DNA from: a virus | Strand: one strand, 5' to 3' | Length of the DNA stretch: 64,000 bases | Virus record (IMG/VR): IMGVR_UViG_3300014911_000001 | Location: 32,001-96,000 of that record | Part shown: one piece after another, positions 3,001 to 44,052 of the stretch | Numbering within the stretch: the first letter of the stretch is position 1 | How the letters are laid out: each line of letters begins with the position of its first letter | Notes under the pieces: generated by a model | Told to the model about the DNA's origin: nothing | What the model saw: only the letters and a program-made list of their open reading frames with translations | Database searches by the model: none | Position numbers and translations under genes: made by a program

Positions 3001-4361
3001 TTCCAGTTCATACCGCCAGCCCATAACACCACCAGCTATGATCCTTAACGACGGTAATACAGATTCATCAATTAGGTATTCAATTACCTCCTTACCAAAG
3101 TTAACATCCTCTATTTCAGGTGGGTAGAAGACAATACATTCCGAGTAGGAAGAAAAAGGACTTTCCTTCATTTCCACATCTATAGAATGGGGTCGGATTT
3201 CCTCTCCCTTGGATGTAGTAACTGATTCTATAATGAAGCACCTCTTTTCTTTATTTATAGGAATCATAATATTCATTCACCCTCCTTTGTATTTTGTTGA
3301 AGCATTCTCTTTACATCGCCCAGTGTCAAGTTTTCAGAGATCCAGCGCACCCTCTTTCCTTTATTTATTAAATGAATCATTTCGGTTTTGTCAAGTAGAA
3401 GAAGCCGCGGCTTCTTCCCCTTCTCATACAAAATAGCCCAGCGCATGCCTTTGCGAAAAAACATTAGCGTCTCTACCTCCTAAATAGTCTTGCTATTGAT
3501 AAAGCACGACTAACCTTTCTTACTGTACTTGGCATATAGTTATAGCGTCCGATATTCGTCAAACCTATGTTAATAAGCACCGCACCGAAAAATATCAATA
3601 AGTAATCGAGAGGTTTTATTTTCATCGAATTATTACTACTTTGCCTGACTTTATAATAAGGCTTATACCTTCTTAATTCTCCCATTTCTCCTCCTTTTTT
3701 TATAGTTGTATCAAGAGTATTAATAAGCCACTCCCTTCAAACTGACATATAACTTCCTATAAATAATTGTATATCATCAGGTAAATTTTCGATCGCATTC
3801 CACCGTATATCGGCCGCGCTACCACTTTCAGGCACATAAACAATGTAGTTGTTATCAACCCATATTTCTGGCAAGATTTCCTTACCATATGTGAAGTCGG
3901 TTGCAAGTCGTTCAACGGCTTCAGGGATTTCACCATCATCGAGATCCTTTGTTAGCTGAGTCTTAACTTCATACATCACAAGGGCAATAAGATCTGAAAA
4001 ATCGTTCATTGTGCACCTCCTATGATATCAATCTCTTTGATCATATCCTTTTTAATTCTCATATAACCTCTTGTTGGTTCTCCATTAATACGACCATTTT
4101 CAACAATTGCATATGTCAATTTTCGTTCCGGATGTGAATCATATGGCTCAATAACATAATCTTCAAACTCGCAACATGCATTTTCCTCAATGGTCTGGAT
4201 GAGATCATTTGCATCTACTTCACATTCCTTAGTATAATATTCAATGTCTTCATCATCGGTTTCCATTATGGCATATCTAGCTTCCTCTATTACCCATTCA
4301 ATCTTATCTGTCTCGATTATTGCACCATTATTTAACATGATTCTAATCATAATTACCTCCT

Positions 4362-6224: not shown

Positions 6225-6563
6225 CTATTGTCTATGTTTATTATCTTCTGCCCGTTCGTCTTTCTTGGCCTCCTCACATGCAATATGGTATGTATAACTC
6301 ACCATGTGCTCCCACAAGTCGTGCCACATATCACTAAGAAGCCGCGCTGCTATATGCCTAAGGAACATATCTGTTTCCTTATCTGTTAGCTCTCTATCAA
6401 GAAGACTATTGCTATTTAATTCATCCTTACCGATGGCAAGAAGATTAACAACATGACCGCCGCGCTTCAATATAGCACATTCATACTTATTACCATTAAC
6501 ATCTTCAAGTTCAAATTTCGTACCACTCCTCCATTTTATTTTGACAACATTCCATCCATTCAT
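6225..6563 (-). CDS. Hypothetical protein, tandem paralog of 6569-6913
   Basis: Shared WxxVKIK...F...CxI(L/I)KRxG pattern. Confidence 0.7.
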   Translation of the reverse strand: MNGWNVVKIKWRSGTKFELEDVNGNKYECAILKRGGHVVNLLAIGKDELNSNSLLDRELTDKETDMFLRHIAARLLSDMWHDLWEHMVSYTYHIACEEAKKDERAEDNKHRQ

Positions 6564-7582
6564 TTTGGTTACCTCGGTAGTTCAATATTATATTTTTCTG
6601 CAGCATCTTCAATGCCTGCCCATAACATTTCCTCTAAATTTCTATATATTGGATTTAATATGTCATCCAATATATCACCAACATATTCCAATACATAATC
6701 AGTAAAATCATCACTAATATCCATCCCTACTGTCTCTCTTACATACTCCTTATTAACAAGTGTTAAACCTATAGTCCTGCCATTACGTTTGATTATTTGA
6801 CACAGACACTCCTCACCATCGATGAATTCTATCCTGAATACCGTATCAGAAACTTTTTTTATTTTTACTATCTTCCACTCATCCATTTTAATCCTCCACC
6901 TTCTCAGGTTCACCTATGGCAATATGAGCGAAGAGCCAATCAGTTGCCTGCTCTATGGCTAACATTTCGTCGGCGGCTTCAACCTCTAAATATCCCTTTA
7001 TTTCAATATCATCTATTGCATTTGTAGCTATACCCCAAGGAATCTTAAACTTCATGACTCACCTCCTTAAATTTTGATTCAAGCCATTTGAGACATTTCT
7101 GAGAATGAAAATAATCCCATACATAATTAGGAATTCTATCAAATTGAGTTGTTGGTTCTAAACTTATAATCTTATGCTCTGGGTTGTACCATATAAGAAA
7201 GATTTCACGATTAAGAAGTTTCCATATGCGTTTATCAATTTTTCTATTGCTGCTTTCTAACTTATCATAAAACAATCCATTAACAAGGTAATAGTAATCA
7301 TTCCCATCTTTTACCTTCATCATTATACTTCTCCTCCTTTTTATCCAGCTCTTCAATACAAAAAACTGCCGCCGAACCAAGTACGAAAATAAGCGTTGCT
7401 ATATTGTGAAGCTTCTGCATGTCAACTTTATTTTTATCTTTTTTATCACGAATATAATTATCCAAGGCAACAAATAGTGCTTCCATCGGTTCAACATTAT
7501 TGCGGCAGGCTTCCTTAAATAGATCAACAGAAGGATTATCTAAATAACGCTCCCAATCTCTCCATGACATAATATCCTCCTT

Positions 7583-8074
7583 TTAAACAGTTACGAATTG
7601 TGAAACCAACTCTTTTAATGATCCCTCTTCTATTATATATCCATTATAATTAGCAACTATGACATACCAATTCATAGGATCATTCTGATCATGTGATCGA
7701 TATACGAAATATAAATACTCTACATCCCCATGTAAATACGGTTCCAACTTCTCAAGTGGTATATACTTTGAACCATCACCATCAGAAATCGGTGAATCAA
7801 TATCGAAATCAAAAACAACACCCGAGAATCCATATCCTAATGTTAATCCCGATCCTTTTTCCTTCTGTCTTTTGCACCAGTAAACCCAATTTGCTGACAT
7901 GTACTCAGCATCAAATCGCATACCCCAATATTTATCCTCTCTTAGCCATTTATTGAATCGAACAAGCCGCGCCAGTATACCAGCATCTGTATCAGGATAT
8001 CCATCTGAATGCACATATGTTATATAGGCACCATAATCATCAACAAAGATCACATGACATCTCGTGGACATCAT
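7583..8074 (-). CDS. Phage hypothetical protein (MSTR...YVHSDGYP type); start trimmed to 8074
   Basis: GGAGG directly upstream of ATG at 8074; the upstream extension of the ORF runs through GC-rich hairpins. Confidence 0.7.
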   Translation of the reverse strand: MMSTRCHVIFVDDYGAYITYVHSDGYPDTDAGILARLVRFNKWLREDKYWGMRFDAEYMSANWVYWCKRQKEKGSGLTLGYGFSGVVFDFDIDSPISDGDGSKYIPLEKLEPYLHGDVEYLYFVYRSHDQNDPMNWYVIVANYNGYIIEEGSLKELVSQFVTV

Positions 8075-8224
8075 TACCTCCTTTTTCTGATGGGGCAGCC
8101 CCGAAGGACTGCCCCGTTGAAAGGAGCCATCATGAGGACGGACACTTTCACCTCCTTCGAAGCCTGCTGAGGTGACCCACGAAGGGCCACCCCAGCACGA
8201 GAAAGGAGCTGCCATGAGGAGTGC

Positions 8225-8770
8225 TTAGAAGCCTACATCATCATCCATATCCTTCGGGAAGGGAGGCTCTTCATCAAATTCCTCTTCGTCCTCCTCACCT
8301 ACAGGAAGCTCATCCTCCTCTTCATCCTCGATATCCTCATCTGCACTCGCGCTTGTACGCCCATCATACGGTCTCTCACGGATAAGATCCCTTATCGTCT
8401 CATCGAGATACAAATAGAGTAGATAGAGTTCGTGTGAATCAAGAGGGAAGGCCAGCTTCCTTGCTTTCTTCTTCCCTGTTTTCTTGCTAATCGTCAGGAA
8501 GAAGGTATCCTTATAGAGACCGAAGGATAGTACGCTACTTCCCTTACCGCCAGCAAGAGATGCATCGTGTATGAAGCGGACCTTCTTACCTTTTCGGACG
8601 CCAAGAGCCAGCTGGGCGGCTTCCGTTAACCCAAGCTTCATCGTTAATCCGTCATCCATGTTGAAGCCGTCGCCCTCCTCATCAGCAGGATACAGAGAGA
8701 GGTAAATACTGCGGTCCTCCACTCTAGCATTGGCTCTGAGATACACAGACTTTTTGAAAAGACTCAACAT
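8225..8770 (-). CDS. Single-stranded DNA-binding protein, Whirly/PC4-like fold with acidic tail
   Basis: By-eye match to the Whirly pattern (LSLFK..., KLGLTEAAQL, RFIHD, FFLTIS, FPLDSHELYLL); long D/E tail ending DDDVGF. Confidence 0.6.
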   Translation of the reverse strand: MLSLFKKSVYLRANARVEDRSIYLSLYPADEEGDGFNMDDGLTMKLGLTEAAQLALGVRKGKKVRFIHDASLAGGKGSSVLSFGLYKDTFFLTISKKTGKKKARKLAFPLDSHELYLLYLYLDETIRDLIRERPYDGRTSASADEDIEDEEEDELPVGEEDEEEFDEEPPFPKDMDDDVGF

Positions 8771-8788
8771 AATAACACCTCCTTTAGG

Positions 8789-9199
8789 TTAATTATTATT
8801 CTTTTGATTCAAAAATGCAAGTGCTTTTTCCTCTGTTTCTGCTATTGTTCTTCCACAATATGGACATACCCATTTATTCAATCCGCCTGTGGAAGTGATA
8901 TCATATGGCCAATCATCATATGTTCCATCTGGATTAAGTTTCCAGCTTACAAAACACTTTTGGACATTCTCTAAATATCTTATTTCCTTATTGCAATGTG
9001 GGCATATTGGATAATTCTCCTCTTTGTAAGCGCGAAGTTCAATACGGCAATTGTATCCTTGCCTTTTCAATTCTGCTATGATATCTTCATATTCCCTTAG
9101 CCTTTCTATTACTTCATCTTTATCAACCTCATGAATGTTTGCCAACAATCGATTAACCATATTCATCAACTTGGTATCTGACATATCCTTAAGATTCAT
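8789..9199 (-). CDS. Zn-ribbon protein
   Basis: CPHC...CPYC; RBS present. Confidence 0.65.
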   Translation of the reverse strand: MNLKDMSDTKLMNMVNRLLANIHEVDKDEVIERLREYEDIIAELKRQGYNCRIELRAYKEENYPICPHCNKEIRYLENVQKCFVSWKLNPDGTYDDWPYDITSTGGLNKWVCPYCGRTIAETEEKALAFLNQKNNN

Positions 9200-9211
9200 G
9201 TTTGACCTCCT

Positions 9212-9796
9212 TTATTCAATATAAATTGTAACACGAGGCCGCGGCCTCATTATCTTCTCTATAACCTTCTTCGTAAGTTCTTTACCAACAACATATTCAA
9301 AATATTTACGATCGCTAAACAGTTTACTTTCCGGTGGAATGGTACCATCAGTAAGAGCTTGATATGCATCAAGTTTAGGACTAAGATCCATACCACAACC
9401 ACCTAGTGCAAGGAAAAACCGACTGTTATACTCAAACGGTATGAGATCGCATTCTATAGCCGCATTTACATCCTCTCTATGTGGTTCATAATATACTATC
9501 CAATATGAAAGATCCTCTTTTAATTGCTCAATTGCCTGCCATTTCCTTTCATCCTCATCCTCATACTCATACTTTTCCTTATACAATTCTATAATTTCAT
9601 CAGGAAATTCCACTTTCATTATATAATCATCATCATAATCGCTTAATCGAACTTCGTCATAAAAGGACTCAAACGGCCGCGTGCGCACTCTTTCGATCAC
9701 AGCCCTTATATGTGTATTATCATTAGCCACAAGTCTATTAAACATATATGTTATAGCATCATCATGTTCGATTGTTTCTATTAGTTTCTCATTCAT
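9212..9796 (-). CDS. Phage hypothetical protein
   Basis: 194 aa ORF with GGAGG; LALGGCGMDLS motif. Confidence 0.7.
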   Translation of the reverse strand: MNEKLIETIEHDDAITYMFNRLVANDNTHIRAVIERVRTRPFESFYDEVRLSDYDDDYIMKVEFPDEIIELYKEKYEYEDEDERKWQAIEQLKEDLSYWIVYYEPHREDVNAAIECDLIPFEYNSRFFLALGGCGMDLSPKLDAYQALTDGTIPPESKLFSDRKYFEYVVGKELTKKVIEKIMRPRPRVTIYIE

Positions 9797-11480
9797 TAGT
9801 TACCTCCTGTAGTTACCTCCTGTGAGCTGACTTTTATAAGAAGCCCGCCGTTCTCCTGCAACTCCTCTGGATCGAATTCTTCAACCTCCATGGTATGACC
9901 GCAAGCAAATGTTATCTTCCTCACATTCTTAACATAGTCGTCGGGATCCGTCATATAGAGAAAAACAGCACCGTCTTCAATAAGCGCATGCACAATGACC
10001 TGATTCTTATCATTGTAACACTTTATTTCATTACTTATTTCTCCGCATTCTGGACAGAGCCATCCCTTGTACATGGAGTAACCTCCTTTCTCGTAAATGG
10101 GTTTATGAACCTCTCAAACTTCTCTCTTATAAGAAGCTCGGCGCATCTTTTACATAAAGGGTAATTTGCTTTGAGGATTTCCATGAGGGCATATGAAGGC
10201 GAGGCTTCCTTTATCTCCTTTCCGCATATCACACAACGCATAATAACCTCCTTTTTACCGTATTATTATTTCACCAGAATCAATCGCGGATAATGTCTCC
10301 TCCATTTCATAAAGCTTTGTTTCTAAGAACTTTCTGCTCTCTTCACTTAGTTTATCACCATACTCCTCAAGGATCCTACTCAACATTCTCCTCCATTCCT
10401 TTAAATCCTCATAGTCACTTCTATGTATTACCATTTATTTCCTCCTTTTCAAAACACAACTCAAGATGTGACCTATAACCTCTACTCTCCAGTTCATCCA
10501 TTATAAGTGAGAATTCATCCCACTCATCATCAGAGATATTGGCATCACGAACCATAATAGCATAATGCAATTCCTTCGCCCTCTTTATGAGATCCTCATC
10601 TGTTGCTCTTATGATACTTGCAATCTTCATTCTTCTTACCTCCTTTACCTTTAATAATATTTCTTATTTTTGATTAATCAATAATTTTTTGTCCATTAAA
10701 TTGACTTTTGTAGTTGTCGTCATCTGACACAGCTAATGGTAAAACGCTTATGTGGCCTTTGTTAGCCTCCTTACATTTATCTAGGAATGAGAGAAATGAA
10801 TATTCATCCATTATGAGGTGGAAGCCGGCGGCCTCATCACTTGCTCGTACTGTTCTGAAAAAGACAAATAACTCACCATTATCAACACTAAAGTTAATTC
10901 CTATCATTGTTGCTCTCCTTTTCAAGTAACTTAGCAATCAATCTCTTTATATTCTCTATTTCTCTTTGCAGATCATATACCTGCTTCGTTACTATGCTGA
11001 GGCATATTTCTAGATCTTTCAGTCTGCTCATATCGTTTCCTAGTTTTGATTTTATAGACCATACCAAACTTGTAATTCTCTGGATCGATCCATCCATGAA
11101 AGTGTTTTGGTAGAACTCTACGACCCTTGCGTTTGTAGAATGCTACCTTCTTTCTCTGCTCCTTCATCACCAAACCTCCTTCACAGGGAAAGAGGTGAGA
11201 CCCGGTTACTTGAAAGGGGGTTGTTTTATGGATTATGGACCGCGCTAGGTATGCTACGCGGAGGAAGGCCGGGCCTCACCATACCTCTTATGTCTCCCTC
11301 AATAATCTTTCCTTTACATAGACCTCGAGAAGCGATCTGAATACCTTACTACTACAGAAATGCTTATCCATTACAAACACATGATCTCCTTCGGTCCTTA
11401 CTCGCTTGTCCCATGTGTGGCCGGCTTCAAGAATACTAAACACATCATCATCAGAGAGGCGGACCTCACTACCATTATCA

Positions 11481-32121: not shown

Positions 32122-33401
32122 GGTATCACCTCCTTTTTGTTTGGTTTTTTACATCACCAAATTGACCTTTCAGATATAGTGGCAATGTTATCAGTCCAGC
32201 AATGAAGCCGCCGCATTGAGCAGCCGTCACATTACCAGTTAGTGCTGCAATAAGGAACGATACAGGGAACGCGGCCATGAAGCCGACGGCTGCTCCCTTT
32301 AATGATGCCTTTAATGTGTTTCTCATCTCTTTCCTATTCCTCCTTTCCACTGTTGATGAAAGAGCGCACCTTCTCAACCAGCTTCTCCTTCACCTCCTCG
32401 GCGCGCTCTGTAAGTTCCTTCCCCATCTTCCTCAGTTTCAGAAATCTGAAGAATCCAATTATTCCAACTGCTGCGAGGATGCTTCCCACTATTCCTCCTA
32501 ATAACAAGGCGAGAATCGCGGTTACCCAGCATGCGAAATCGGGTTCGTCGCTGATTATGTATGGTGCGAAGTATGATGCGGCTGCTAGTATTATTCTGCT
32601 CATTCTTTACCTCCCTCTGTCGAAAACATTTTTGATAATATAACTCCTAATATAAACCCTATTATAAATGGTATGTAGTCAATTACTCCAAACATTGGTT
32701 CAAACATTTTTTGACCTCCTTTCTCCATTTTCTTTCCTTCAGCATAAGTTTTACTGACCTTACCATGATGTATATGCCAGCAACAATTGCAGTAAGGCCA
32801 GCAACTACCAGTGATGACCTTATGAATATTTCACTTAATGTTATAAACATTTCTCCTCCTTTGTTGACCCTCCTCCCCTCCTTGATATGGCGGGGCTTAT
32901 GGTGGGACAAGGGGAGAGGCCTAATTGAGGGAAACACTTGGATCAAGGTGGGAGAGGGGAGGAGAGCCCTTTGATTTAATCTTCGTATTGTGTGTACCAC
33001 TTGTTCTCTCTGGCGTTATACCATATGTAAATCTGTAAATCGCCGAAGTCTATATGTATGTATGGCATCCCGTCCGACCAGTGCCACCTGAAGGTCATCC
33101 AACCGATTGGTTCTGTTAGGATCTCCAATTTCGGTTCGTCCTTCTTTGGATTGAATGCCCATGCATATAGATCGAGTCTCTTCTTGTATGCGTACGGTGC
33201 ATCCGGGTGTCTGCATACTATGTAGACTGGAACAAGCTCCGCCTCGGGGCCTATGGGAGAGGATACAATGTTGCCATCTTCATCTATCGCGACGGGGAAT
33301 TCTACATGCGCCTTTGCTGTGTATCCCACAGGATACACAATGTGCGCATGATATTTGTTATTCATTCTAACTGATTTCCACATAATAACCTCCTTGTTAA
33401 T

Positions 33402-33749: not shown

Positions 33750-34030
33750 AATCCTGACCTCCTTATCTATTATAGTAGATTTTTATCTTTGCACTCCGTC
33801 CATATCTCCACCTCAATCTCCGCTTTAGCTCGTTTATATCCGCAGCAAAAATCTCATGGAGGCCGTCAGTTCTGACAAACCTCCATGATTTTATATTCCC
33901 CACGTAGGTTGGCTTTCCATTAGGGGCATATGTATGTAGTTTCTCCTTTGTCCTTACTGTTATAACATCAATGTCCTTCAGTAACGGGTAAAATTTCAAC
34001 GACATAAAACACCTCCTTTTTTAATGTGAA

Positions 34031-34081
34031 GCCCGCCATTAAATCGAAGCGCGCAACCCGGCGGGCTTAGGTCGCGCGCTT
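34031..34081 (-). promoter_or_regulatory. 5' leader H-type pseudoknot (PK-h)
   Basis: Stem AAGCGCGCGACC/GGUUGCGCGCUU; loop UAA-GCCCGCC pairs with downstream GGCGGGC; RBS of 34005 follows. Confidence 0.7.
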
Positions 34082-34088
34082 ACTTTTT

Positions 34089-34760
34089 TTATTCCACTTT
34101 ATTGACCCAGTCGGCTTTGGCATACGGCTTGCCGTTTATATACCACCTCTTCTCGGACGTTATGAGCACGGTTTCATAGCGCTCAAGTAGGTAATCGTTA
34201 CGCTCCCTTACCACGACAGCTTTAGGCTCAGGGATGATGGCATCGGTACCATGTGGAGGTGTGGGAGGGAAAATTGAAACGAGCTGACGTGGAAGGATGA
34301 CAAGAGAAAGGTGTTTGCCTTTCTGTTTGATGCGACTCCTGATGGTCTTCTCGAGACCCTTCTCGACGATTACGTAGCCATACGAATCCGCAGCCTCCTG
34401 GGCGAGTGTGTTCGCCATTTTATTCCCTGTTCTGGCTGTGTGTTTTACAATAACCTCCTTATGCTGGTTATCAGCGTAGTACCTAGCCAGCTCATATAAT
34501 TCCATAAGCTCAGGCTTCTTAATATCATATTCTTGGTTAAACTGCTTCACCACTAACTGTGAGTCGCTGTGTATTGTGGTATCACCCTGGATGTACTGGC
34601 TAATGTATGTCGCAAGAACTAGTGCTGCCCATTCAGCCTCGTTGTTTGTTGCCTCCCCAATGGGTATTGATAGTGATATACCAACCTCCGGAATATATAT
34701 CCCAATCCCAGCGGGACCGGGATTGCCTTTTGATGAGCCATCAATGTAAATGTTAGTCAT
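34089..34760 (-). CDS. rnhA: Ribonuclease HI family protein with C-terminal extension
   Basis: [36 protein letters not shown]. Confidence 0.85.
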
Positions 34761-34774
34761 AATACCTCCTTTAT

Positions 34775-35197
34775 TTATGGTTTAACTTTTCGTAAGCCGA
34801 GGCAACCTATCGGTCGTATGCTTCCACTGCTGGTCTTTTCATATACAGGATGAGCAATCGTGTATAACTTGTCTACGTTAGGTAGGTTGAGAGCAACTGC
34901 TGCAGAAGCATATTGATTACTAACAATTATTATATCAGCATCATCAGGGATGGGATCAATATCCTGTATCCTCTGTGTTATAACTGGGATCATAACCTCA
35001 CCGTTCACTGGACATTCGTAAAGGATGCTCGGAAGGAATTCGGTTTCATGGTGGACATTCAGAAGGATTCCGGAGGGTGGAATTATGGTAACTAGCTTGG
35101 TTTTTTCAGGCTCTATGAAGTATTTCCTGTGCTCACTTATGTAAACGGCGTCCTCAAAAATACATATCTCGTGAGGAGTGCAGTTTAAGATTTTCAT
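34775..35197 (-). CDS. Phage hypothetical protein (NxTPH type)
   Basis: [24 protein letters not shown]. Confidence 0.7.
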
Positions 35198-35219
35198 TAC
35201 ATACCTCCTTTTATTAGGC

Positions 35220-35279
35220 GGGCCTCATTACACCACCATGCAGAGCAGCAGGGCGAGGCCCTTAACCCTGAAGCTCTGC
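35220..35279 (-). promoter_or_regulatory. 5' leader pseudoknot (PK-g)
   Basis: Loop UAA-GGGCCUC pairs with GAGGCCC; RBS of 35197 follows. Confidence 0.7.
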
Positions 35280-35294
35280 GAAGAAAGAGAGCTA

Positions 35295-35627
35295 TTAGGA
35301 CAAGCGTTCTGCTTCCTGTCTAATCCGAACGGCATCCCTTACTACCTCTAACAGCGAAGGCGGTATAACCCTATTGTTCGAGGTTTTCCCAGTGCGCAAA
35401 TCAACTGCGACAGCACAATCATGCTCGTAAAAGTATACTATATCCCCATCCGGGAAGAATGTTCCATTAGCAGTAGCAACATTATAAATCAGATCGTTGG
35501 TGTATTCGCCGGGATCGCGATATGGTGTATAATGATCCTGAGCGTCCGGTGTTTCACAACCGGTAGTGCTTCTCACACATACATCACACCTGCCACTTCT
35601 ACACAGACGGCACTTATCAAATAACAT
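35295..35627 (-). CDS. Cys-rich hypothetical protein
   Basis: CxxC...CxxC N-terminus; RBS. Confidence 0.65.
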   Translation of the reverse strand: MLFDKCRLCRSGRCDVCVRSTTGCETPDAQDHYTPYRDPGEYTNDLIYNVATANGTFFPDGDIVYFYEHDCAVAVDLRTGKTSNNRVIPPSLLEVVRDAVRIRQEAERLS

Positions 35628-35654
35628 GATAACCTCCTTATTTTAATGTTTTAT

Positions 35655-35706
35655 GCCCGCCATTAACCAAGCCAGCAAGGACCGGCGGGCTTAGCCCTCA
35701 CTGACT
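35655..35706 (-). promoter_or_regulatory. 5' leader pseudoknot (PK-f)
   Basis: Loop UAA-GCCCGCC pairs with GGCGGGC; RBS of 35627 follows. Confidence 0.7.
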
Positions 35707-35726
35707 ATTAATTTCCAACTAATTGA

Positions 35727-36095
35727 CTACACAAGTGACGGGCCGAGGGCATCCTCTATTTTGGGACGCCCATACTCAACCTTCCACCCATTTTTAGGCG
35801 GAAGGTTGCGGACCCACCAGTCATACCACTGGCGGTCCATCACCTTTATAAGTTTGGATCGCTTGAAAAACACAGCGATCCACTTCCTTCTTCCCCCAGA
35901 ACGAGGGGAGAAAAACCATATAATCTCATTGGGTCGCACCTTGCCTGTTTTAACAAGATGCGACCACTGCGACCCAGTATTCACATTCTGGGCCGCTAAA
36001 ATAAACTCGTAATGGTTGCGCCACCTTTCGATGGCGCTCTCCCCGGATAACAACTTGGGGAGGTTGATTCTCAAGAAGTTAGTTAATGATAACAT
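35727..36095 (-). CDS. Hypothetical protein, paralog of 4362-4706; start trimmed to 36095
   Basis: GAGGAGG before ATG 36095; N-terminus matches paralog. Confidence 0.75.
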   Translation of the reverse strand: MLSLTNFLRINLPKLLSGESAIERWRNHYEFILAAQNVNTGSQWSHLVKTGKVRPNEIIWFFSPRSGGRRKWIAVFFKRSKLIKVMDRQWYDWWVRNLPPKNGWKVEYGRPKIEDALGPSLV

Positions 36096-36119
36096 AATAC
36101 ACCTCCTCTTTTGGAGGTT

Positions 36120-36175
36120 GCCTGCCACTTTTACCCACAGATAAGGCGAGGCCGGCAGGCTTAACCCCGCCTTAT
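36120..36175 (-). promoter_or_regulatory. 5' leader pseudoknot (PK-e)
   Basis: Stem AUAAGGCGGGGU/GCCUCGCCUUAU; loop UAA-GCCUGCC pairs with GGCAGGC. Confidence 0.7.
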
Positions 36176-36285
36176 CTTACTACTCCAGCTCATTGACTCC
36201 ATCACGAGCCAACAAGCCGGCCAAACCCTCCGTCACCCTCGCGGCACCGCTCCTCGCAGGCCGCACACAGGGGAGGAGGGCTTGG

Positions 36286-36353
36286 GGAGGCCTCTTAGAC
36301 CCTCTGTCGAGGGAGCTCCAGCGCCACGCCAAGGCGGGCCTCCAGTGCTGGAG
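36286..36353 (-). ncRNA. HDV-like ribozyme variant Rz1
   Basis: P1 CUCCAGC/GCUGGAG, P2 GGAGGCC/GGCCUCC, P3 GCC/GGC, L3 UUGGCGU, P4 CCCUC/GAGGG, J4/2 UCUAA. Confidence 0.8.
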
Positions 36354-36457
36354 TAGCCCCCGGCACGGGGGCTTCATTCTTTTTTCTCTCCACCTCCTTT
36401 CTAGCGGGATGAGCTAGCCCGGCCACCTAGCCCATCCCGCGGTTTAAGGTTTAACCT

Positions 36458-38857
36458 TTAATCGAGCTTCCAGAAGTTGAGCCAAAATTCGCGATCGGCA
36501 TTAGCAAGAGGATGAAGACCAGCAGGAGTTGTAATCCTAAGAAGCCGCGCGATTTCCCAGTTTCGCTTCCGACCAGTATGAAGTTCCACAAGAAATCTCA
36601 CATGAGATTCAAGTTCAGATTCGGTACCAGCAACAATTGCAAGGAAGTCGTTCTCAGCAACGGTAAGAGATTTCCAAGTGGTAAGAATTGCCTGAGGTTC
36701 AAACGCAGCAAGAAGTTTACGGAATCGCCGGTTGAGTCTCCGGAAGTTCCTAGTAAGAAGTATACGTAGCTCAGCAATCCTGCTGTTGAGGAAGCGCCTA
36801 CGCCGATCCAGTTCCCGTCTCCTATTTTTGAGGGTAGCCAGAGCATCGGATAGGGTATTAAGCCTAGGTAGCAGCCACTTTTCCATTTTCTGCCTCAGAA
36901 CTTCGTTTCTGATCCCAGATACTAGGAACCTGACTTTAGTTTCAGGTTTCGCATTAGCGAAGAGTCTCCGGCTCCGATTAACTACCGTATCAACCGCCGT
37001 CACTTTCTCCGCAAGAGCATTCACTTCATTTTCTATCTTCCGTATCCGAGAGAGCATCCGTCCAAACATGCGCCTCCTTATGCGATCCCACTTGAGGAAC
37101 AATGCCTTAACTTCTGGATCAATGGTGCCATCAGGAATAAGATCCTTAAGAGACCTAACTTCTGGCTCAGCAAACTTAACTTCAGGAATAAATTCAGCAA
37201 GAGGACCTGTCGGAGTTATGGCTGCTGGATCAGCTTTCGCGGTTCGGTTAGTGATCATTTGAGTAATAGTATCAAGCCTGGCAGTCGTACTCGCGAGTAG
37301 ATGCAGTCCCGCTTCTACCTCATGACGAAGCTCCGGTTCTTTACCATTAGCAAGATTCACCGCAGCTTGGAATAGCGCTCCAGCTTTCGCAATAAGATCC
37401 ACATTAATCTCAGTATCAGAAAGAAGCATCCTAGTGAAGCCAGCATCTGCCCGTGCGATCATCTCCTTCCCTAGCTCAATATTTTCCACTTCAGTACTAG
37501 GATCCATTCTCCACTTCCCGAAAGAGATTTCTTTTATCTTGCTTCGTATGCTATCGAAGAATTCCTTAGCAACAAGAGGCTCCTTGAAGACCTTGGATGC
37601 CGCGGCGAGAGCCACTTTGTCGCCATCGGCATCCCATCCGCTAGGCATATCTGCAGGGTGTACCAGAATCGCATGCGCACGATGGTCAACAATAATAGGA
37701 AGGATAAGAGTATCACCAGGCAAGATGGGCGACTTCTGTATGAGTAGGAGTTCTCCATCTTTCAGACCAAGCATACGTGCAATCACAGGAGGAATAACAG
37801 CAGTGCCGGGATGTGCATTCTGAAATCCCAGATAGAAGCCCGGGCCTAGTCTCAACTTCCGAAGTGCGATCTTTAAGTGGTCCAGAAGCACTCTCCGCAG
37901 GAAGCCTGCCTCCTTTATGAGGCCGAATTTCCGCAGAATATCAGCAGTCAGAGTCAGCACTGCACTAGGTTCATTGATCGGATCAGCGTTTTTAACAAGG
38001 ATATCAGCCGCTACCTCAGGATCAGAAAAACCATTAATAGCTTCAGCAATCTGCTCCTGAATCCGTTCAACAAACTCAGGCGCTGGATTAACATTCCATC
38101 CGAGTTTCCTTGGCAGAAGGAACCAGCGCGGCAGAGCTTGGCTGAGACTGATGCCACCCGCGAATACGGCACCAACCTCATGCAGCATGATGGTTCGCCC
38201 GAGTTCGAGTACGAAGCGCCGCCTCTTGATGAGTTTTGCGGTGTCAGCATCAGCGACGATATCAGTCCCTGTCTCTATCTCAGTAAGAACTTTATCAGCA
38301 AGAACCTCATCTCCCAGATACAACATCAGCCTCTGGAACCCGACTCTGCCGGGAAGAACTGGTACCGCTATCCCTTTCAGTCCAATAGCTGTAATCTTAA
38401 AACCACGTTTAATAAGAGCACGAGTTACCGCAGGGATATCAGCTTCTGTAGGAGCATGAGCACGCGCAACCAGCTCTGTAAACCTCTCGGACACGAAGAA
38501 AATTCCGTCTACACCCATTTTAGCATCGAGCTTGAGGCCGCGAACATCCACATTAGCCACTCGCTCAGGTTTAAAGTGCCAGCCCTTATTTGGGATCTCC
38601 GGAGTTGTCATCATCTGAATTCGCTTACCAGGAAGAGTTCTCAGATCAAATCCGTGATCGCCGAGGATATCTGCAATCACCTTATTAACCTTATCAATAG
38701 CAGAAGCAGGAACTACTCTAAAGACCCGACAATCAGGAACCATGGTTGGTTTCATTGGAAGATCAGAGTTCAGATCAGGATCAAATGCGAAGAAGACACT
38801 AGCACCAGCTTCAGCGAATAGAATAGCAAGAGGAGACTTCGGTATTCTTTCCATCAT
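36458..38857 (-). CDS. Putative single-subunit double-psi beta-barrel RNA polymerase (YonO / cellular RdRP-like architecture)
   Basis: Ordered motifs DGIFFVS, GLKG, QKSP, WDADGD; AAAGGAGGT before ATG at 38857/38854. Confidence 0.6.
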   Translation of the reverse strand: MMERIPKSPLAILFAEAGASVFFAFDPDLNSDLPMKPTMVPDCRVFRVVPASAIDKVNKVIADILGDHGFDLRTLPGKRIQMMTTPEIPNKGWHFKPERVANVDVRGLKLDAKMGVDGIFFVSERFTELVARAHAPTEADIPAVTRALIKRGFKITAIGLKGIAVPVLPGRVGFQRLMLYLGDEVLADKVLTEIETGTDIVADADTAKLIKRRRFVLELGRTIMLHEVGAVFAGGISLSQALPRWFLLPRKLGWNVNPAPEFVERIQEQIAEAINGFSDPEVAADILVKNADPINEPSAVLTLTADILRKFGLIKEAGFLRRVLLDHLKIALRKLRLGPGFYLGFQNAHPGTAVIPPVIARMLGLKDGELLLIQKSPILPGDTLILPIIVDHRAHAILVHPADMPSGWDADGDKVALAAASKVFKEPLVAKEFFDSIRSKIKEISFGKWRMDPSTEVENIELGKEMIARADAGFTRMLLSDTEINVDLIAKAGALFQAAVNLANGKEPELRHEVEAGLHLLASTTARLDTITQMITNRTAKADPAAITPTGPLAEFIPEVKFAEPEVRSLKDLIPDGTIDPEVKALFLKWDRIRRRMFGRMLSRIRKIENEVNALAEKVTAVDTVVNRSRRLFANAKPETKVRFLVSGIRNEVLRQKMEKWLLPRLNTLSDALATLKNRRRELDRRRRFLNSRIAELRILLTRNFRRLNRRFRKLLAAFEPQAILTTWKSLTVAENDFLAIVAGTESELESHVRFLVELHTGRKRNWEIARLLRITTPAGLHPLANADREFWLNFWKLD

Positions 38858-39018
38858 ATCACCTCCTTTCCGCCGCGGATTTCGTTGCCCTCGGTGCGGC
38901 ACTCCGAGGGTCGCCGGGCTTCGAGCGTCATTGGTGCCAAGGCTGGCCATAGAATGAAGCCCGGAAATTCCATGGCCATGGCCGGGCGCCTCAGCACCTC
39001 TGCCCTCTTTTTATCCAT
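38854..39018 (-). CDS. Putative 54-aa leader ORF coupled to the polymerase gene
   Basis: AAAGGAGGT before ATG 39018; its TGA overlaps the polymerase ATGATG. Confidence 0.4.
   Translation of the reverse strand: MDKKRAEVLRRPAMAMEFPGFILWPALAPMTLEARRPSECRTEGNEIRGGKEVI
38872..38910 (-). promoter_or_regulatory. 5' leader pseudoknot (PK-d) before polymerase RBS
   Basis: Stem CCCUCGG/CCGAGGG; loop GCCGC pairs with GCGGC next to the RBS. Confidence 0.55.
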
Positions 39019-39042
39019 TCTTTCTTACCTCCTTTATAAATA

Positions 39043-39121
39043 GAGGGACTCTTAGGCCCTTAGGCTATTGACCTAAGGGAGCCCCGGCGCCACGACAAGG
39101 CGGTCCCTCAAAAAGCCGGGG
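39043..39121 (-). ncRNA. HDV-like ribozyme variant Rz2
   Basis: P1 CCCCGGC/GCCGGGG, P2 GAGGGAC/GUCCCUC, P3 GCC/GGC, L3 UUGUCGU, P4 CCCUUAGG/CCUAAGGG, J4/2 CCUAA. Confidence 0.8.
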
Positions 39122-39589
39122 TTAACTCAATTTGACATCATTATTATCCTTCTCTTTCTTTATCCACTCTATCAATTCATCCACTAGGCGCTCCACATTA
39201 TAATCATCAATAATAAGAAGCGCCCTCCTGACCTTGTAGCCGAGCACCTCATGCGCTTTTAGCACATGCCTCGGCATCCAAGGCCAGGTCTCATTGTATC
39301 CCCCATTATATTTGATTTGGAGAAGGATTACCTCCTTCTTATGGGGGATACCAATGCTGACGTCGATTTTAAATACGACGTCAGCTTTACTCCCGATAGG
39401 ATAGTCTATTAATTTCCATCCCGCCGGAAGCTTGGAGGATAGTTCTTCAATGAATCTATCCTCCGCTTCGAAGCCAGCTCTATGCGCCTCATGTGCGATA
39501 GAGCTAACCTCGAAATCCGGGCGGATTATTTCATGACATTCCGCCCAGAATTTTCGCGCTATAGTGCGGGCATGCGTTTCCATATCCAT
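39122..39589 (-). CDS. Putative PD-(D/E)xK-fold nuclease
   Basis: GFEAE...KIDV...LLQIK spacing resembles the E...D...QxK variant. Confidence 0.4.
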   Translation of the reverse strand: MDMETHARTIARKFWAECHEIIRPDFEVSSIAHEAHRAGFEAEDRFIEELSSKLPAGWKLIDYPIGSKADVVFKIDVSIGIPHKKEVILLQIKYNGGYNETWPWMPRHVLKAHEVLGYKVRRALLIIDDYNVERLVDELIEWIKKEKDNNDVKLS

Positions 39590-39601
39590 GGTTGCCTCCT
39601 T

Positions 39602-40177
39602 TTACTCGACAAGAACATGATATATTCCATTTATTTTCTTTACTTTCCTTACTCTAAATAAACATTTATCCACAATTACTTCCTCTTCTTCACAATAAGG
39701 TTGCAAATTCAACAATCTCCCCTCTGCTTTAGTCATAAATACAACAGGAACTACATCAGGAAAATTATATCCTTCCCACAAATCCGGGTCATCAAACTCG
39801 TTATCATAACTTCTCTTTTTTCAAATTGCGAAGCGCTTTGCAACTGCATAACGCCTCGTCCAACTCATATTGATAGATATTTTCCTCCCTATCTGAGGGA
39901 TAGCATATACAACATCCCCTCTGAATAATAGTGATCTTACCTTAGGACACCCTAATAACGATATTTTTAAGGCGAGCTTAGAAATATAGATACCTCTCCC
40001 CTTCCACATTCTCAGCAAAGCGATCCTATTGTCTTTTGAAAATATCCCGCACAAAATTCTCAGCTTTTTCAATAACAGCTTGTATTTCATTTGGAGATGG
40101 TTCAGCTTTATTTCCCAACTCCTGTAAAAAACATTCCTTTTAGGATCTTTAATGAATAACGAAATGACCCACCACAT
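39602..40177 (-). pseudogene. ADP-ribosyltransferase-like gene interrupted by in-frame TGA at 39821-39823
   Basis: LFRG and SWT before the stop; frame stays open 72 more codons containing EEEVIV. Confidence 0.6.
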
Positions 40178-40192
40178 TGTTACACCTCCTTT

Positions 40193-40251
40193 TGCCCGTA
40201 TTAGTTTACCAAGGGCACCATCTGACCTGCGGGCATTGATCAGACGGTGCC
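40193..40251 (-). promoter_or_regulatory. 5' leader pseudoknot (PK-c)
   Basis: Stem GGCACCGUCUGAUC/GGUCAGAUGGUGCC; loop UGCCCG pairs with CGGGCA next to the RBS of 40177. Confidence 0.6.
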
Positions 40252-40320
40252 TATGTTACAAAACGGGCACCGTATAGTCATGGTAACAATACGGTGCCCT
40301 CACAACATCCCCTTTTATTA

Positions 40321-40396
40321 GGGTGCTCTTAGACCCTTAGGGATTGGACCTAAGGGAGCCCCTCCACCACGTCAAGGTGGCACCCTATCGGAGGGG
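40321..40396 (-). ncRNA. HDV-like ribozyme variant Rz3
   Basis: P1 CCCCUCC/GGAGGGG, P2 GGGUGC/GCACCC, P3 ACC/GGU, L3 UUGACGU, P4 CCCUUAGG/CCUAAGGG, J4/2 UCUAA. Confidence 0.8.
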
Positions 40397-40449
40397 TAGC
40401 AAGGCCATCATGTGAGGCCTTGCTTTGGCTTGGGCGGCACCTCATCATC

Positions 40450-40746
40450 TTACACATAAAAGCGATCCAACCCCTCAATATGAGGGGTTGTTTTGCTCTC
40501 CCTATCAACGATGTACAAGTTAGTCCCTATCCGAAATATGTCATGATACTTACACGCCTCCGGCTCCACAATAAGCTCTGCATCCTCAGGTATATATCCA
40601 ACCCATCCTTTGTACAAGCACCTCCGCACTAAGACATGAGTAAAACAGCTGGAATCAACAAGTGTAAGTCTATCATCATCATCATCGTAAATTCCGATAT
40701 ACCAGTAGTTATCTCTCACCAAGACTTTAATGACTTTTACCGCCAC
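40450..40746 (-). CDS. Hypothetical protein; GTG start at 40746
   Basis: AAAGGAGG upstream of GTG; the longer ORF start lies within RNA structure. Confidence 0.65.
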   Translation of the reverse strand: MAVKVIKVLVRDNYWYIGIYDDDDDRLTLVDSSCFTHVLVRRCLYKGWVGYIPEDAELIVEPEACKYHDIFRIGTNLYIVDRESKTTPHIEGLDRFYV

Positions 40747-40761
40747 GATAAACCTCCTTTC

Positions 40762-40820
40762 GCCGCACCTCAGTTCAGCCCCCGACACGCATGCGGTGCG
40801 GCATTTACATACGTGTCGGG
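40762..40820 (-). promoter_or_regulatory. 5' leader pseudoknot (PK-b)
   Basis: 14-bp stem; loop AAAU-GCCGCACC pairs with GGUGCGGC abutting the RBS. Confidence 0.7.
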
Positions 40821-40836
40821 ATGCCGCCCAAGCCAT

Positions 40837-40907
40837 CGGACGCTCTTAGACCTAGCCACAAGGCTAGGAGCCCCTCCACCACGTCAAGGTGGCGTCCGTC
40901 GGAGGGG
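40837..40907 (-). ncRNA. HDV-like ribozyme variant Rz4
   Basis: P1 CCCCUCC/GGAGGGG, P2 CGGACGC/GCGUCCG, P3 ACC/GGU, L3 UUGACGU, P4 CCUAGC/GCUAGG, J4/2 UCUAA. Confidence 0.8.
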
Positions 40908-40956
40908 TAGCAAGGCCATGCGAGACCTTGCTTTGTCTGCGGGGGCACCATGAATA

Positions 40957-41190
40957 TTATAACTCTGATGGACGGGGCCTCTGTAACGATTCAAAATATA
41001 GCGATAAAGCCTCCATGAATGTCACAGGAATCCCTTTTTTCTTATACTGGAATGGAGGCGCCGGAACATTACCCAGCACCTCCTTTGTTATTTTTATTGC
41101 AATGTAACCTCTAAGTTCCTTAAACCGGTATGTCTTGATTTCACCATTATTATAAATGGTGATAGCATTCACGTTTTTTGACATCCTCAT
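40957..41190 (-). CDS. Small hypothetical protein
   Basis: GGAGG RBS; sits inside RNA cassette. Confidence 0.65.
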   Translation of the reverse strand: MRMSKNVNAITIYNNGEIKTYRFKELRGYIAIKITKEVLGNVPAPPFQYKKKGIPVTFMEALSLYFESLQRPRPSEL

Positions 41191-41206
41191 TTTATCCTCC
41201 TTTTTC

Positions 41207-41266
41207 GCCGCGCCTTGGTTCTACGCCCAGCATGTACGCGGCGCGGCATTTACGCACATGCTGGGC
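41207..41266 (-). promoter_or_regulatory. 5' leader pseudoknot (PK-a)
   Basis: 15-bp stem; loop AAAU-GCCGCGCC pairs with GGCGCGGC next to the RBS. Confidence 0.7.
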
Positions 41267-41759
41267 TGGCGCCCCCGCAATCCCCTATTAGCCGAGGAAG
41301 CAAATCAAAAATCAAGGGGGCAGGGGGGTCGAAATACAATCCGACCCCCTCAAAATCCACAATAGAGACCTCCTGAATTTTTTGCCGATTTCTTGACCCT
41401 TATGGACCTCCCTGTAGACTCATTCCGACGGGGTACCTTGCGGCATAGGGAGGTGTTCTATGAGGTTGTTGGTTGGACTGGATATGGGCTTGTGATGGTT
41501 ATTGTGTTAGGGTCTGGGGGGTGTGGGACCTCTTGTGGGCTTGTTTGTGACTATGTGGGTTGGTGTGGGCTACCCCTTTTCGACCCTATGGGTCTGCTCT
41601 CTATAAGGCTTCCTGCTTCAGCGAGGGATAGCTAGGCTTATGTGAAGCCCCCGCCAGAGCCCTCTCCACAGGCATAAGTTCGGGCCGCCCCGGCCCTACC
41701 ACCCGTGAGGTGGGTGAGCCCATTTTTTGTGATGTATGTTGTGTGTATGTTAGCATTTT

Positions 41760-42428: not shown

Positions 42429-42824
42429 TCATTTTATCTCCTTATTGTTTTTATCGTTGAAATATGTTTTTCTAAATTCCTCTAGGATAGGTTCATCACC
42501 TGTACCATAGAGGACGGCGTGCATCCATTCAGTTACTTGATCTGCTGTATGGTGTGGAAATACATCCTTCATGCATCCGAAGTATTTTTGCCAGTTGGTT
42601 GGTTTAGGTTTTTTATGTTCTTTTATAGTCCATTTTTTGGTAGCTGTGGCGGATCCGTAGGTTGTGAGGATGAGGCCTATAATTATTATTATTATGGTGT
42701 ATGTAGTGGGATTATTGGTGTAGTGGTGGAGGAGGAAGCCGGCCGCAGTGGTAAGGAGGCCCCAGAATCGTTTGCTTTTCCAGAAGGGTTTGGTGTTATT
42801 ATTGTTATTATCGTGTGTGCTCAT
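42429..42824 (-). CDS. Holin-like two-TM membrane protein
   Basis: KPFWKSKRFWG followed by two hydrophobic helices. Confidence 0.45.
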   Translation of the reverse strand: MSTHDNNNNNTKPFWKSKRFWGLLTTAAGFLLHHYTNNPTTYTIIIIIIGLILTTYGSATATKKWTIKEHKKPKPTNWQKYFGCMKDVFPHHTADQVTEWMHAVLYGTGDEPILEEFRKTYFNDKNNKEIK

Positions 42825-44052
42825 TTTGGATCTCCTTTATGTTATGAAGCCCGCGCTTCAGTATATTAATACTTGCATTATAATCTCTATCGAGGGTTGC
42901 ACCACAGAACGGACATTTATGTATACGATCGTGGAGTGATTTGGGTACCTTATGTCCACATGAGGAGCATGTCTGCGTAGTATATGCTGGGTTAACCTTG
43001 ATGACCTGTGAGCCGTGAAGCCGCGCCTTGTAGGATGTTAGATTGATAAGTGTGTTCCATCCTGCATCGTAGATGTATTTAGAGAGGTGAAGCCGGCGGC
43101 GCTTGCTTACAAGATCACGTATTTTTATATCCTCGAATATAATAATATCATAGTTAGTAGCAAGCTGGTGTGAGATATGATGGAGGAAGCCGCGCCGCAT
43201 GTTAGCTAATCGTTCATGGAGTCTGGCTAGTTTACGCCTCTGTTTCATATAATTAGCACTCCCTCGCTGCTTGCGCGAGAGCTGTTTTTGTACACGCTTT
43301 ATACGTTTTTCGAGTTTGGTGATGAAGCGCGGGTTAGATACAATATTACCATCACTTGATACGATGAGATTCGTAAGCCCGAGATCTATACCGATGATGC
43401 GCTGCTTATTATTAGTATCGATAACGATAGTAGCGTCATTATTATTGGGTACTTCAACTGTTACATATACATACCATCTACCGCTGGGATGTCTTTTTAT
43501 AGTAACATTTTTGGCTTTAGTCCAGTCGATGGGTCGGTGAAGGCGGATTTTTAAGCCGCCGAGTTTGGGTAAATGAATATATGCGAACTTATCATTCAGT
43601 TTCTCAAATTTAATGACAGGATACCCATCCGGATAGTTTTTATGAGTCATCCAAACTTGTGGATATGTAAGTGATAGATATTGATCAGGTTTTTTGGGTT
43701 TAGGCGGACTTATATGTCCTTCTTTATTCCTGATGGCTACAAAGAAACGCTTATATGCCCAGTCAATCTTATCAATTATAGCCTTTAAGACACCTGAATA
43801 AACGAGCCTTAAGGCAGGTTCCTCTCTTTTAAATGCGGTTAGGTTACGTTGCCTCTCAAATTTTGTAGGGGTTCTATGTTCTTCATCCCATATACGTCTG
43901 TATTCATTTATTTCGTAATTATAGAACCAGCAGAGGATGGACAGCCAGTTTTCTAGTTTGTATTCTTGTAGTGTTGTTGGATAGGCTCTGAATTTGTAGG
44001 TGAGGTAGGAAGCCGCCGCCTTATCAGTATTTTTTGATCCCTGTTTATTCAT
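42808..44052 (-). CDS. tnpB: IS200/IS605-family TnpB RNA-guided endonuclease
   Basis: YKFRAYPT, GIDLG, FEDI, YTTQTCSSCG, CPFCG, DRDYNASINI. Confidence 0.92.
   Translation of the reverse strand: MNKQGSKNTDKAAASYLTYKFRAYPTTLQEYKLENWLSILCWFYNYEINEYRRIWDEEHRTPTKFERQRNLTAFKREEPALRLVYSGVLKAIIDKIDWAYKRFFVAIRNKEGHISPPKPKKPDQYLSLTYPQVWMTHKNYPDGYPVIKFEKLNDKFAYIHLPKLGGLKIRLHRPIDWTKAKNVTIKRHPSGRWYVYVTVEVPNNNDATIVIDTNNKQRIIGIDLGLTNLIVSSDGNIVSNPRFITKLEKRIKRVQKQLSRKQRGSANYMKQRRKLARLHERLANMRRGFLHHISHQLATNYDIIIFEDIKIRDLVSKRRRLHLSKYIYDAGWNTLINLTSYKARLHGSQVIKVNPAYTTQTCSSCGHKVPKSLHDRIHKCPFCGATLDRDYNASINILKRGLHNIKEIQNEHTR

Follow-up and report, generated by a model that had tools for sequence, protein, structure and literature searches.

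Why should some ten neighbouring and unrelated virus genes each be headed by a structured leader of the same design? The question is raised by IMG/VR virus record IMGVR_UViG_3300014911_000001, a record of 175,796 bp from an uncultured phage, classed as complete, of which bases 32001-96000 (64,000 nucleotides, hereafter the window) were analysed. Minus-strand genes with very strong ribosome-binding sites lie at 33-44 kb of the window, a region in which no tRNA was found, and about ten of them, placed around a gene for a polymerase-like protein of 799 amino acids (aa), each begin with a pseudoknot leader. A preliminary description of the window had listed eight H-type pseudoknots directly upstream of ribosome-binding sites. 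All eight are present, on the minus strand, and their anatomy together with covariation in both helices strongly supports, at the level of sequence comparison, an H-type pseudoknot fold in sense-strand RNA.

From 5' to 3', each leader consists of a hairpin (S1), a helix between the hairpin loop and downstream sequence (S2), an A-rich spacer, GGAGG and the start codon. S1 has 12-15 bp, except in elements E4 (7 bp) and E7 (7+5 bp, interrupted by a 2x2 internal loop). The hairpin loop measures 9-12 nucleotides (nt) and opens with L1, 1-4 mostly A residues, while S2 is a G+C-rich helix of 6-10 bp that is perfectly complementary apart from one U-G in E4. L3 measures 7-21 nt (7-15 nt in the eight originally listed elements) and usually ends in AA, and the gap from S2 to GGAGG is A-rich and 3-17 nt long. 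The interleaved order S1a-S2a-S1b-S2b, by which the H-type class is recognised, was found in all nine elements of the region. An unbiased scan of the whole genome for hairpins with a loop able to pair 3-24 nt further downstream recovered six of the eight listed elements directly, the other two having an interrupted or a short S1, and added a ninth, at 38914-38978, that the preliminary description had not listed. In the following rows, L009 and L039 are contigs from related viruses.

E1, 41206-41266, minus strand: S1 of 15 bp (41252-41266 with 41225-41239); S2 of 9 bp (41240-41248 with 41206-41214); L3 of 10 nt; GGAGG at 41200; ATG at 41190.
E2, 40761-40821, minus strand: S1 of 15 bp; S2 of 9 bp (40795-40803 with 40761-40769); GGAGG 3 nt past S2; GTG at 40746.
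E3, 40193-40251, minus strand: S1 of 14 bp; S2 of 6 bp (8 bp in L009 and L039); L3 of 15 nt; GGAGG after 3 nt.
E4b, 38914-38978, minus strand: S1 of 12 bp; S2 of 9 bp; L3 of 21 nt; in tandem with E4 and within a 54-codon upstream open reading frame (uORF).
E4, the short form, 38871-38910, minus strand: S1 of 7 bp; S2 of 6 bp including one U-G; GGAGG at 38866.
E5, 36120-36177, minus strand: S1 of 14 bp; S2 of 8 bp; L3 of 11 nt; then a small hairpin, 36101-36118, that would sequester a ribosome-binding site.
E6, 35655-35706, minus strand: S1 of 13 bp; S2 of 8 bp; L3 of 7 nt; GGAGG after 17 nt.
E7, 35220-35279, minus strand: S1 of 7+5 bp with a 2x2 internal loop; S2 of 7 bp; L3 of 13 nt.
E8, 34029-34081, minus strand: S1 of 12 bp; S2 of 9-10 bp; L3 of 8 nt; GGAGG after 12 nt.
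Possible tenth member, 32755-32814, minus strand: S1 of 14 bp, rich in G-U; S2 of 10 bp, richer in AT; GGAGG after 28 nt.

Could such an arrangement arise by chance? The test set consisted of 205 perfect hairpins (stem of at least 10, loop of 8-16) from the whole genome, and a hit was defined as complementarity of the loop to downstream sequence over 6 or more positions, with G-C pairs at 4 or more of them. Such pairing was found for 10 of 85 minus-strand hairpins, compared with 0 of 120 on the plus strand, and the mirrored geometry, with the complement upstream, was seen in 1 of the 205. Seven of the ten minus-strand positives fall inside 34029-41266, a stretch of 7.2 kb. The remaining three are the candidate at 32.8 kb and a pair of weak positives, one at 22.6 kb and the other at 8.2 kb of the window, so that the earlier statement that no such structures had been found outside the region was nearly right but needs these exceptions. 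When the 34 nt downstream of each hairpin were shuffled, the observed length of S2 was equalled in 0-6% of the trials per element.

Relatives of the virus were found through the 799-aa protein: the IMG/VR contig L009 (90% identity) and four protein clusters (89, 87, 78 and 31%), whose contigs, L032-L039, were used for comparison. The architecture was present on the sense strand, 5' of GGAGG, in every relative compared (six related contigs). The distant contig L035, whose polymerase-like protein is 31% identical, keeps it in three copies, one of them an intergenic copy spotted by eye, with unrelated S1 and S2 sequences. A 9 kb megablast against 50,697 phage records returned no match.

Because a MAFFT alignment of all 28 copies was not structurally consistent, pairs were counted on a gapless subgroup of five distinct E1/E2-type copies. 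In this subgroup 120 of 120 cells were paired (100%), compared with 21-56% in slid controls; both sides had changed in 9 of the 24 pairs (8 in S1 and 1 in S2), and none of 500 shuffles reached the observed covariation. The 28 distinct copies carry 15 different S2a/S2b combinations, all of them complementary, and swapping partner strands between copies lowered pairing to 56% for S1 and 63% for S2. This permutation is the informative part, because the family-wide tally of paired positions is anchored on the structure and circular, the copies having been found by their pairing. The covarying loop/downstream pairs given in the preliminary description were correct. Individual elements behave in the same way. 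S1 changes are compensated in the E1 orthologs of L009, L032 and L039; many S1 positions differ in the E2 copies of L009 and L039, with pairing intact throughout; and compensated S1 variants of E6 occur in L009, L032, L036, L039, L089 and L092. The S1 of E7 becomes a helix of 14 bp including G-U pairs in L039, and the E8 copies of L032 and L036 differ in S1 sequence, that of L036 having a G-U in S2. E4 is identical in the relatives, so covariation cannot be read there, and the same holds for the candidate at 32755-32814, which is identical in L039 and overlaps a possible open reading frame (ORF).

The strand on which the structure is read could also be judged from the pairs. In 30 distinct copies, the S1 pairs comprised 339 Watson-Crick, 67 G-U, 3 A-C and 4 other combinations, which bears out the earlier remark that G-U pairs favour the minus strand. 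G-U pairs are found inside S2 too, in L036 and L035, and the mirrored scan revealed no such hairpins on the antisense strand. Because of the asymmetry between G-U and A-C and the interleaved order of the helices, the sequence evidence places the structure on the sense strand, with the transcript as its simplest carrier.

Plain nested folding finds S1 in every case but is unable to show S2, and for this reason the folding z-scores are uneven (for example, -4.6 for E3 and -2.9 for E7). Calculated at 60 C, S1 contributes -7 to -17 and S2 -6 to -13 kcal/mol, and both are favourable at 60-70 C; these modelled energies would allow S1 and S2 to form together. Such temperatures are plausible for this lineage, which is probably thermophilic judging by protein composition: the IVYWREL proteome index predicts about 59 C for the phage and 51-75 C for its relatives (L032, L035 and L036), and the same script gave about 70 C for Thermus phage P23-45 as a control. 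A heat-loving life, as predicted, would account for an AT-rich genome that encodes long RNA helices rich in G+C.

An exact-pattern scan of viral contigs matched 22 loci, and the hairpin context was present only in two, both from one related record. A metagenome scan with the loop word of E5, E6 and E8 plus its complement gave at least 122 matches, with S1 in 8 among the matches listed; all 8 loci were of E5, E6 or E8 type, with the same A-rich spacer and GGAGG and with new compensated S1 variants. The loop word and its complement alone are common, and meaningless without S1.

Two further features lie close to the leaders. First, the 54-codon uORF (38854-39018, minus strand) crosses E4b and E4, and its stop codon (TGA) overlaps the start codon (ATG) of the polymerase-like gene; it is called by gene callers in the relatives as well, and it may reflect real translational coupling or an accident of G+C-rich RNA. 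Second, in the hairpin past E5 (36101-36118, minus strand), a CCTCC word pairs with the GGAGG of the next gene, and a base-changed variant of this hairpin is kept in L032 and L036.

What do the leaders belong to? They make up the leader section of conserved cassette frames, whose other components are paired arms, a hairpin and an element resembling the double pseudoknot of the hepatitis delta virus (HDV) ribozyme, a context that the preliminary description missed. Four HDV-like elements, each with the nested double-pseudoknot order, were located:

HDV-like element, 40837-40907, minus strand.
HDV-like element, 40319-40396, minus strand.
HDV-like element, 39043-39121, minus strand.
HDV-like element, 36286-36353, minus strand.

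Each of them sits between the upstream stop codon or hairpin and the next pseudoknot leader, and four leaders lie 3-100 nt downstream of such an element. Their order is P1, P2, P3, a 7-nt L3, P1', J1/4, P4, J4/2 (C then AA) and P2'. The sequences of P1, P2 and P4 vary between copies and relatives while complementarity is kept; the first base of P1 is C, not the usual G, and no Rfam match was obtained. If the putative cleavage occurs, the small hairpin before each HDV-like element would end the upstream RNA. The J4/2 word of these elements was also considered as a promoter of the P23-45 type and was rejected, its structured context being confined to the four elements. E6, E7 and E8 have the full pseudoknot with neither a ribozyme-like element nor arms upstream, and the pseudoknots of L035 occur without recognisable HDV-like elements.

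The arms flank E1 and E2 and pair across the ORF. They are 11-14 nt long and join the sequence just 5' of the pseudoknot with that just 3' of the stop codon:

Arm pair, window, about 41269-41279 with 40939-40949.
Arm pair, L032, about 3847-3857 with 4240-4250.

In L032 the arms are retained despite an unrelated ORF. Exchange of ORFs at the borders of the modules is directly visible between the window and L009, where homology breaks 1 nt past the ATG of the first ORF (41187) and resumes 7 nt after its stop. Leaders of the E1, E2, E3, E6 and E7 types precede unrelated ORFs among the window, L009, L032 and L039. Because the same type of knot precedes unrelated ORFs in different relatives, the leaders are generic, portable modules that stay while the ORFs are swapped, rather than being fitted to any single gene product. 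The array has only one unique upstream region, before E1. No repeated promoter word was found in the genome, the AT-rich word of P23-45 and the unique sequence upstream of E1 being without repeats there, and sigma-70-like promoters and terminators were not enriched, with no T-tract after S1. The single unique upstream region, together with the absence of the P23-45 words, agrees with a single long transcript and its later processing.

The gene headed by E4 is the 799-aa polymerase-like gene in the middle of the array, with its start at 38857. It carries a loop of the DxDGD type. Sequence searches of Pfam, PHROGs and PDB gave nothing useful for the protein, and its AlphaFold2 model was poor (pLDDT 46). 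In Foldseek this model yielded weak rows (E about 0.03), of which the best were the non-virion RNA polymerases (RNAPs) of Thermus phages (P32 gp64 and P74 gp62), double-psi beta-barrel (DPBB) domains and plant RNA-dependent RNA polymerase (RDR). On these model-based matches, the protein is a probable two-barrel RNA polymerase. In L035 the polymerase-like protein and an RNase H domain form one fusion protein (6497-9826; P0004, 1109 aa); in the window (34089-34760) and in the close relatives, RNase H has its own gene, a few genes downstream. Just upstream of the array is an IS605-family TnpB gene (OrfB_IS605, Cas12f1-like TNB; 42808-44052, minus strand), which is also present in L032 and L036; a host search through this gene returned only a 28%-identical Runella match, which is uninformative.

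What, then, might the leaders do? The sequence comparisons show the fold, its strand, its constant place before the ribosome site and its portability, and any role beyond these is inferred. The preliminary description offered three functions, of which an exonuclease block and a protein-binding operator are kept here as candidates and a riboswitch or ribozyme class is disfavoured. The reading we favour, tentatively and as something short of an even chance, is that the leaders belong to portable expression frames in an early operon that contains the polymerase-like gene, and that each pseudoknot acts as a heat-stable plug that shields the 5' side of the message and leaves the ribosome site open. 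The long S1 would stack on the G+C-rich S2, with the A-rich L1 and L3 lying in the grooves, to give a compact body that resists heat. Such a plug could halt 5'-to-3' decay by an exonuclease of the RNase J type a few bases before the ribosome site, the enzyme entering at the 5'-OH left by an upstream self-cleaving element or at any endonucleolytic cut. In addition, by locking up the G+C-rich leader, it would keep the ribosome site single-stranded whatever ORF or upstream RNA adjoins it. The HDV-like elements, if active, would leave a 5'-OH on the downstream RNA, and the 5'-OH ends that the glmS ribozyme produces are degraded by RNase J1 as substrates. Viral (flaviviral) exonuclease-resistant RNAs (xrRNAs) are reported to stop RNase J1 (MacFadden 2018, PMC5760640).

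Several points weigh against the plug. A plain G+C-rich hairpin of 14 bp might already stall an exonuclease, which leaves the requirement for S2 unaccounted for, and a second block looks redundant where an HDV-like fold occupies the 5' end. The gap between S2 and GGAGG is only 3-5 nt in four copies, so that the fold could hinder 30S binding. The lengths of S1 and L3 are not significantly correlated (rho 0.28, p 0.15), and the steric signature of a true pseudoknot is thus not demonstrated. Finally, sequence conservation is higher in L1, in S2 and at the ends of L3 than in S1, which fits tertiary contacts and equally fits a bound protein.

This last point leads to the main rival of the plug, a shared translational operator, which is possible although we would not expect it. 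One phage or host RNA-binding protein would recognise the knot through L1, S2 and the ends of L3, would cover or expose the ribosome site and so switch an early gene set together, by analogy with control by T4 gp32 or RegA. Eight to ten unrelated genes carry the module within 3-17 nt of GGAGG, S1 drifts freely through compensated changes whereas sequence is conserved in L1, S2 and parts of L3, and the A-rich unstructured spacer follows the knot as in the T4 gene 32 leader. A KH-domain protein is encoded in the array of L032 (5455-6117) behind an E3-type knot, in that one relative only, and is a candidate for the binding partner; however, apart from the products of the polymerase-like and RNase H genes, no candidate is shared by every relative. 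Moreover, S2 and L1 vary among paralogs, and those of L035 are markedly unlike the rest, so that the protein would need a loose specificity, and the spacing to the ribosome site is as variable as the range above indicates. Autogenous control of the T4 gene 32 type is disfavoured, as knots of the E1, E2, E3, E6 and E7 types precede different ORFs across the relatives. The T4 gene 32 leader resembles the present leaders in being an H-type pseudoknot of a phage mRNA followed by an unstructured A/U-rich stretch with the ribosome site, but it is single-copy and bound by the product of its own gene, whereas about ten copies of shuffled types stand here before unrelated genes.

An unlikely explanation is that the modules work at the level of DNA, as a promoter, terminator or pause signal for two-barrel RNAPs of the phage or as a recombination site, with the RNA fold incidental. 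The elements do cluster at a gene whose product has weak fold matches to Thermus phage RNAPs, and some features of phage P23-45 also favour this explanation. In that phage, a virion RNAP fused to the tape measure transcribes a block of small pre-early genes that includes the gene of the non-virion RNAP (PMC10770324). Each pre-early gene has its own 11-nt AT-rich promoter and a terminator made of a hairpin plus T residues, and the non-virion enzyme, gp64, uses G+C-rich promoters (PMC10770324). The two systems are alike in that small genes with their own repeated intergenic signal surround a two-barrel RNAP gene, or here a probable one, in a phage that is thermophilic, or here probably so, and a tape-measure-fused RNAP may also occur in the present phage. 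Furthermore, the G+C-rich promoter before ORF63 of P23-45 (L042, about 35283-35340, minus strand) shares an 11-nt complementarity with the loop of a 10-bp hairpin that immediately precedes it, in an interleaved layout as here. A long upstream complement (10-11 nt) was nevertheless found at only two of the eleven P23-45 motif sites checked, the other being a 10-nt complement before an intergenic start, and beyond these two isolated cases of a loop complementary to a promoter, nothing in P23-45 stands out as a pseudoknot leader. The promoter words of P23-45 are absent from the present genome.

The loop words of E5, E6 and E8 also belong to an over-represented genome word, K-AAGCC plus at least 4 G/C, which would suit a DNA signal. 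The word occurs at 268 sites, compared with 9 for the reversed control, and turns up in each of the three reading frames; of these sites, 180 have the complement (..GGCTT) on the sense strand of the ORF that spans them, 67 have it on the opposite strand and 21 are intergenic. Its 3' part resembles the G+C-rich promoter of P23-45 gp64 (PMC10770324 supplement). Thirteen exact copies of the 11-nt loop word of E6 and E8 were considered as targets in trans and were rejected, being the expected share of this degenerate genome-wide word. The exchange of ORFs at module borders would likewise agree with a recombination site. Against a DNA signal, the interleaved order and the compensation in both helices are predicted by RNA pairing and not by protein-bound DNA, duplex or cruciform DNA is hard to reconcile with the 67:3 ratio of G-U to A-C and with G-U pairs inside S2, and the lack of a T-tract and of enriched sigma-70-type promoters or terminators, described above, points the same way.

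It is quite unlikely that the knot is a folding helper or insulator, which would prevent wrong pairing of the coding region with the HDV-like element and the 5' and 3' arms and would not itself take part in decay or translation. The four leaders that follow HDV-like elements and the two flanked by arms are placed as this explanation would predict, and RiboJ-type synthetic insulators combine a ribozyme with a hairpin before the ribosome site. However, E6, E7 and E8 keep the full knot with neither partner upstream, as do the knots of L035 with respect to recognisable HDV-like elements.

A search of Rfam 15 at the gathering threshold, an analysis that the preliminary description had proposed, gave no match, either in the window or in the five related loci searched, and a permissive scan (E up to 10, 33.5-41.6 kb) returned six chance-level rows, with no preQ1, SAM-II, fluoride, pistol, xrRNA, int-alpA or HDV family among them. 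The new riboswitch or self-cleaving ribozyme class that had been entertained for these leaders is highly improbable: several riboswitch classes are H-type pseudoknots beside ribosome sites, and in the pistol ribozyme, too, the 5' half is a hairpin with a loop that pairs downstream, but a conserved unpaired core is absent, nothing is shared in sequence beyond the A-rich L1 and L3 ends and the G+C-rich S2, S2 and L1 change from copy to copy and take a very different form in L035, the ribosome site lies outside S2b, the same type of knot precedes unrelated ORFs that are exchanged between relatives and form no single pathway, and no Rfam family matches even at the permissive threshold.

Our searches of papers turned up no description of this family of pseudoknot leaders, and comparison with known systems therefore has to be made by parts. 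In the xrRNAs of plant viruses, the apical loop of a stem-loop pairs with downstream sequence. The plant-virus (dianthovirus and luteovirus) and flaviviral xrRNAs are like the present leaders in that the loop-downstream pairing is met by a 5'-to-3' exonuclease before the protected RNA, a likeness of topology. They differ in that S1 is much longer here (12-15 bp), with no conserved internal loop and no sign of a ring around the 5' end, and in that the protected product here would be a translatable mRNA and theirs is a non-coding RNA; no Rfam xrRNA family matched here. The int-alpA motif (RF02996) and similar leaders before phage nuclease genes are also repeated and structured, the loop of a hairpin there pairing a short way downstream; in the present leaders, however, the partner of the loop is a site of its own, separate from the ribosome site, the genes behind the leaders are not nucleases, and RF02996 gave no match at E up to 10. 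The promoter early stem-loops (PeSLs), reportedly described by Arbiol and colleagues in 2010, are said to be mobile cassettes of T4-type phages with a DNA promoter and a terminator-like stem-loop. As in those cassettes, a repeated intergenic module flanks small variable ORFs, which are early ORFs in the T4-type phages, and marks the breakpoints of exchange, for which it would provide the homology; the modules here differ in being pseudoknotted RNA leaders at which a promoter was not detected.

Structured leaders, leader pseudoknots and repeated intergenic cassettes are thus already known kinds. What is unusual here is a multi-copy, covarying and gene-exchanged pseudoknot module, combined with ribozyme-like elements and arms, around a gene resembling a two-barrel RNAP. 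Extending the plug to the whole cassette, HDV-like ribozymes would cut a polycistronic early transcript into single-gene messages, each closed by its paired 5' and 3' arms, ended by a 3' hairpin and guarded at the ribosome site by a pseudoknot against RNase J-type decay, and the phage lineage would swap accessory genes into this frame. Whether these are in consequence the first exonuclease-resistant leader RNAs of a bacterial virus, set within a protein-free, portable frame for mRNA stability and expression, is a possibility that we put forward with considerable doubt.

The family is small, sharply defined and easily tested with compensatory mutants. If the protective role is true, exonuclease-resistant RNAs would extend from eukaryotic viruses to phages, and the leaders would offer synthetic biology a compact, heat-stable insulator for expression in bacteria, including thermophiles. 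If the leaders are instead operators, they would constitute a regulon-wide translational switch in a poorly known group of phages.

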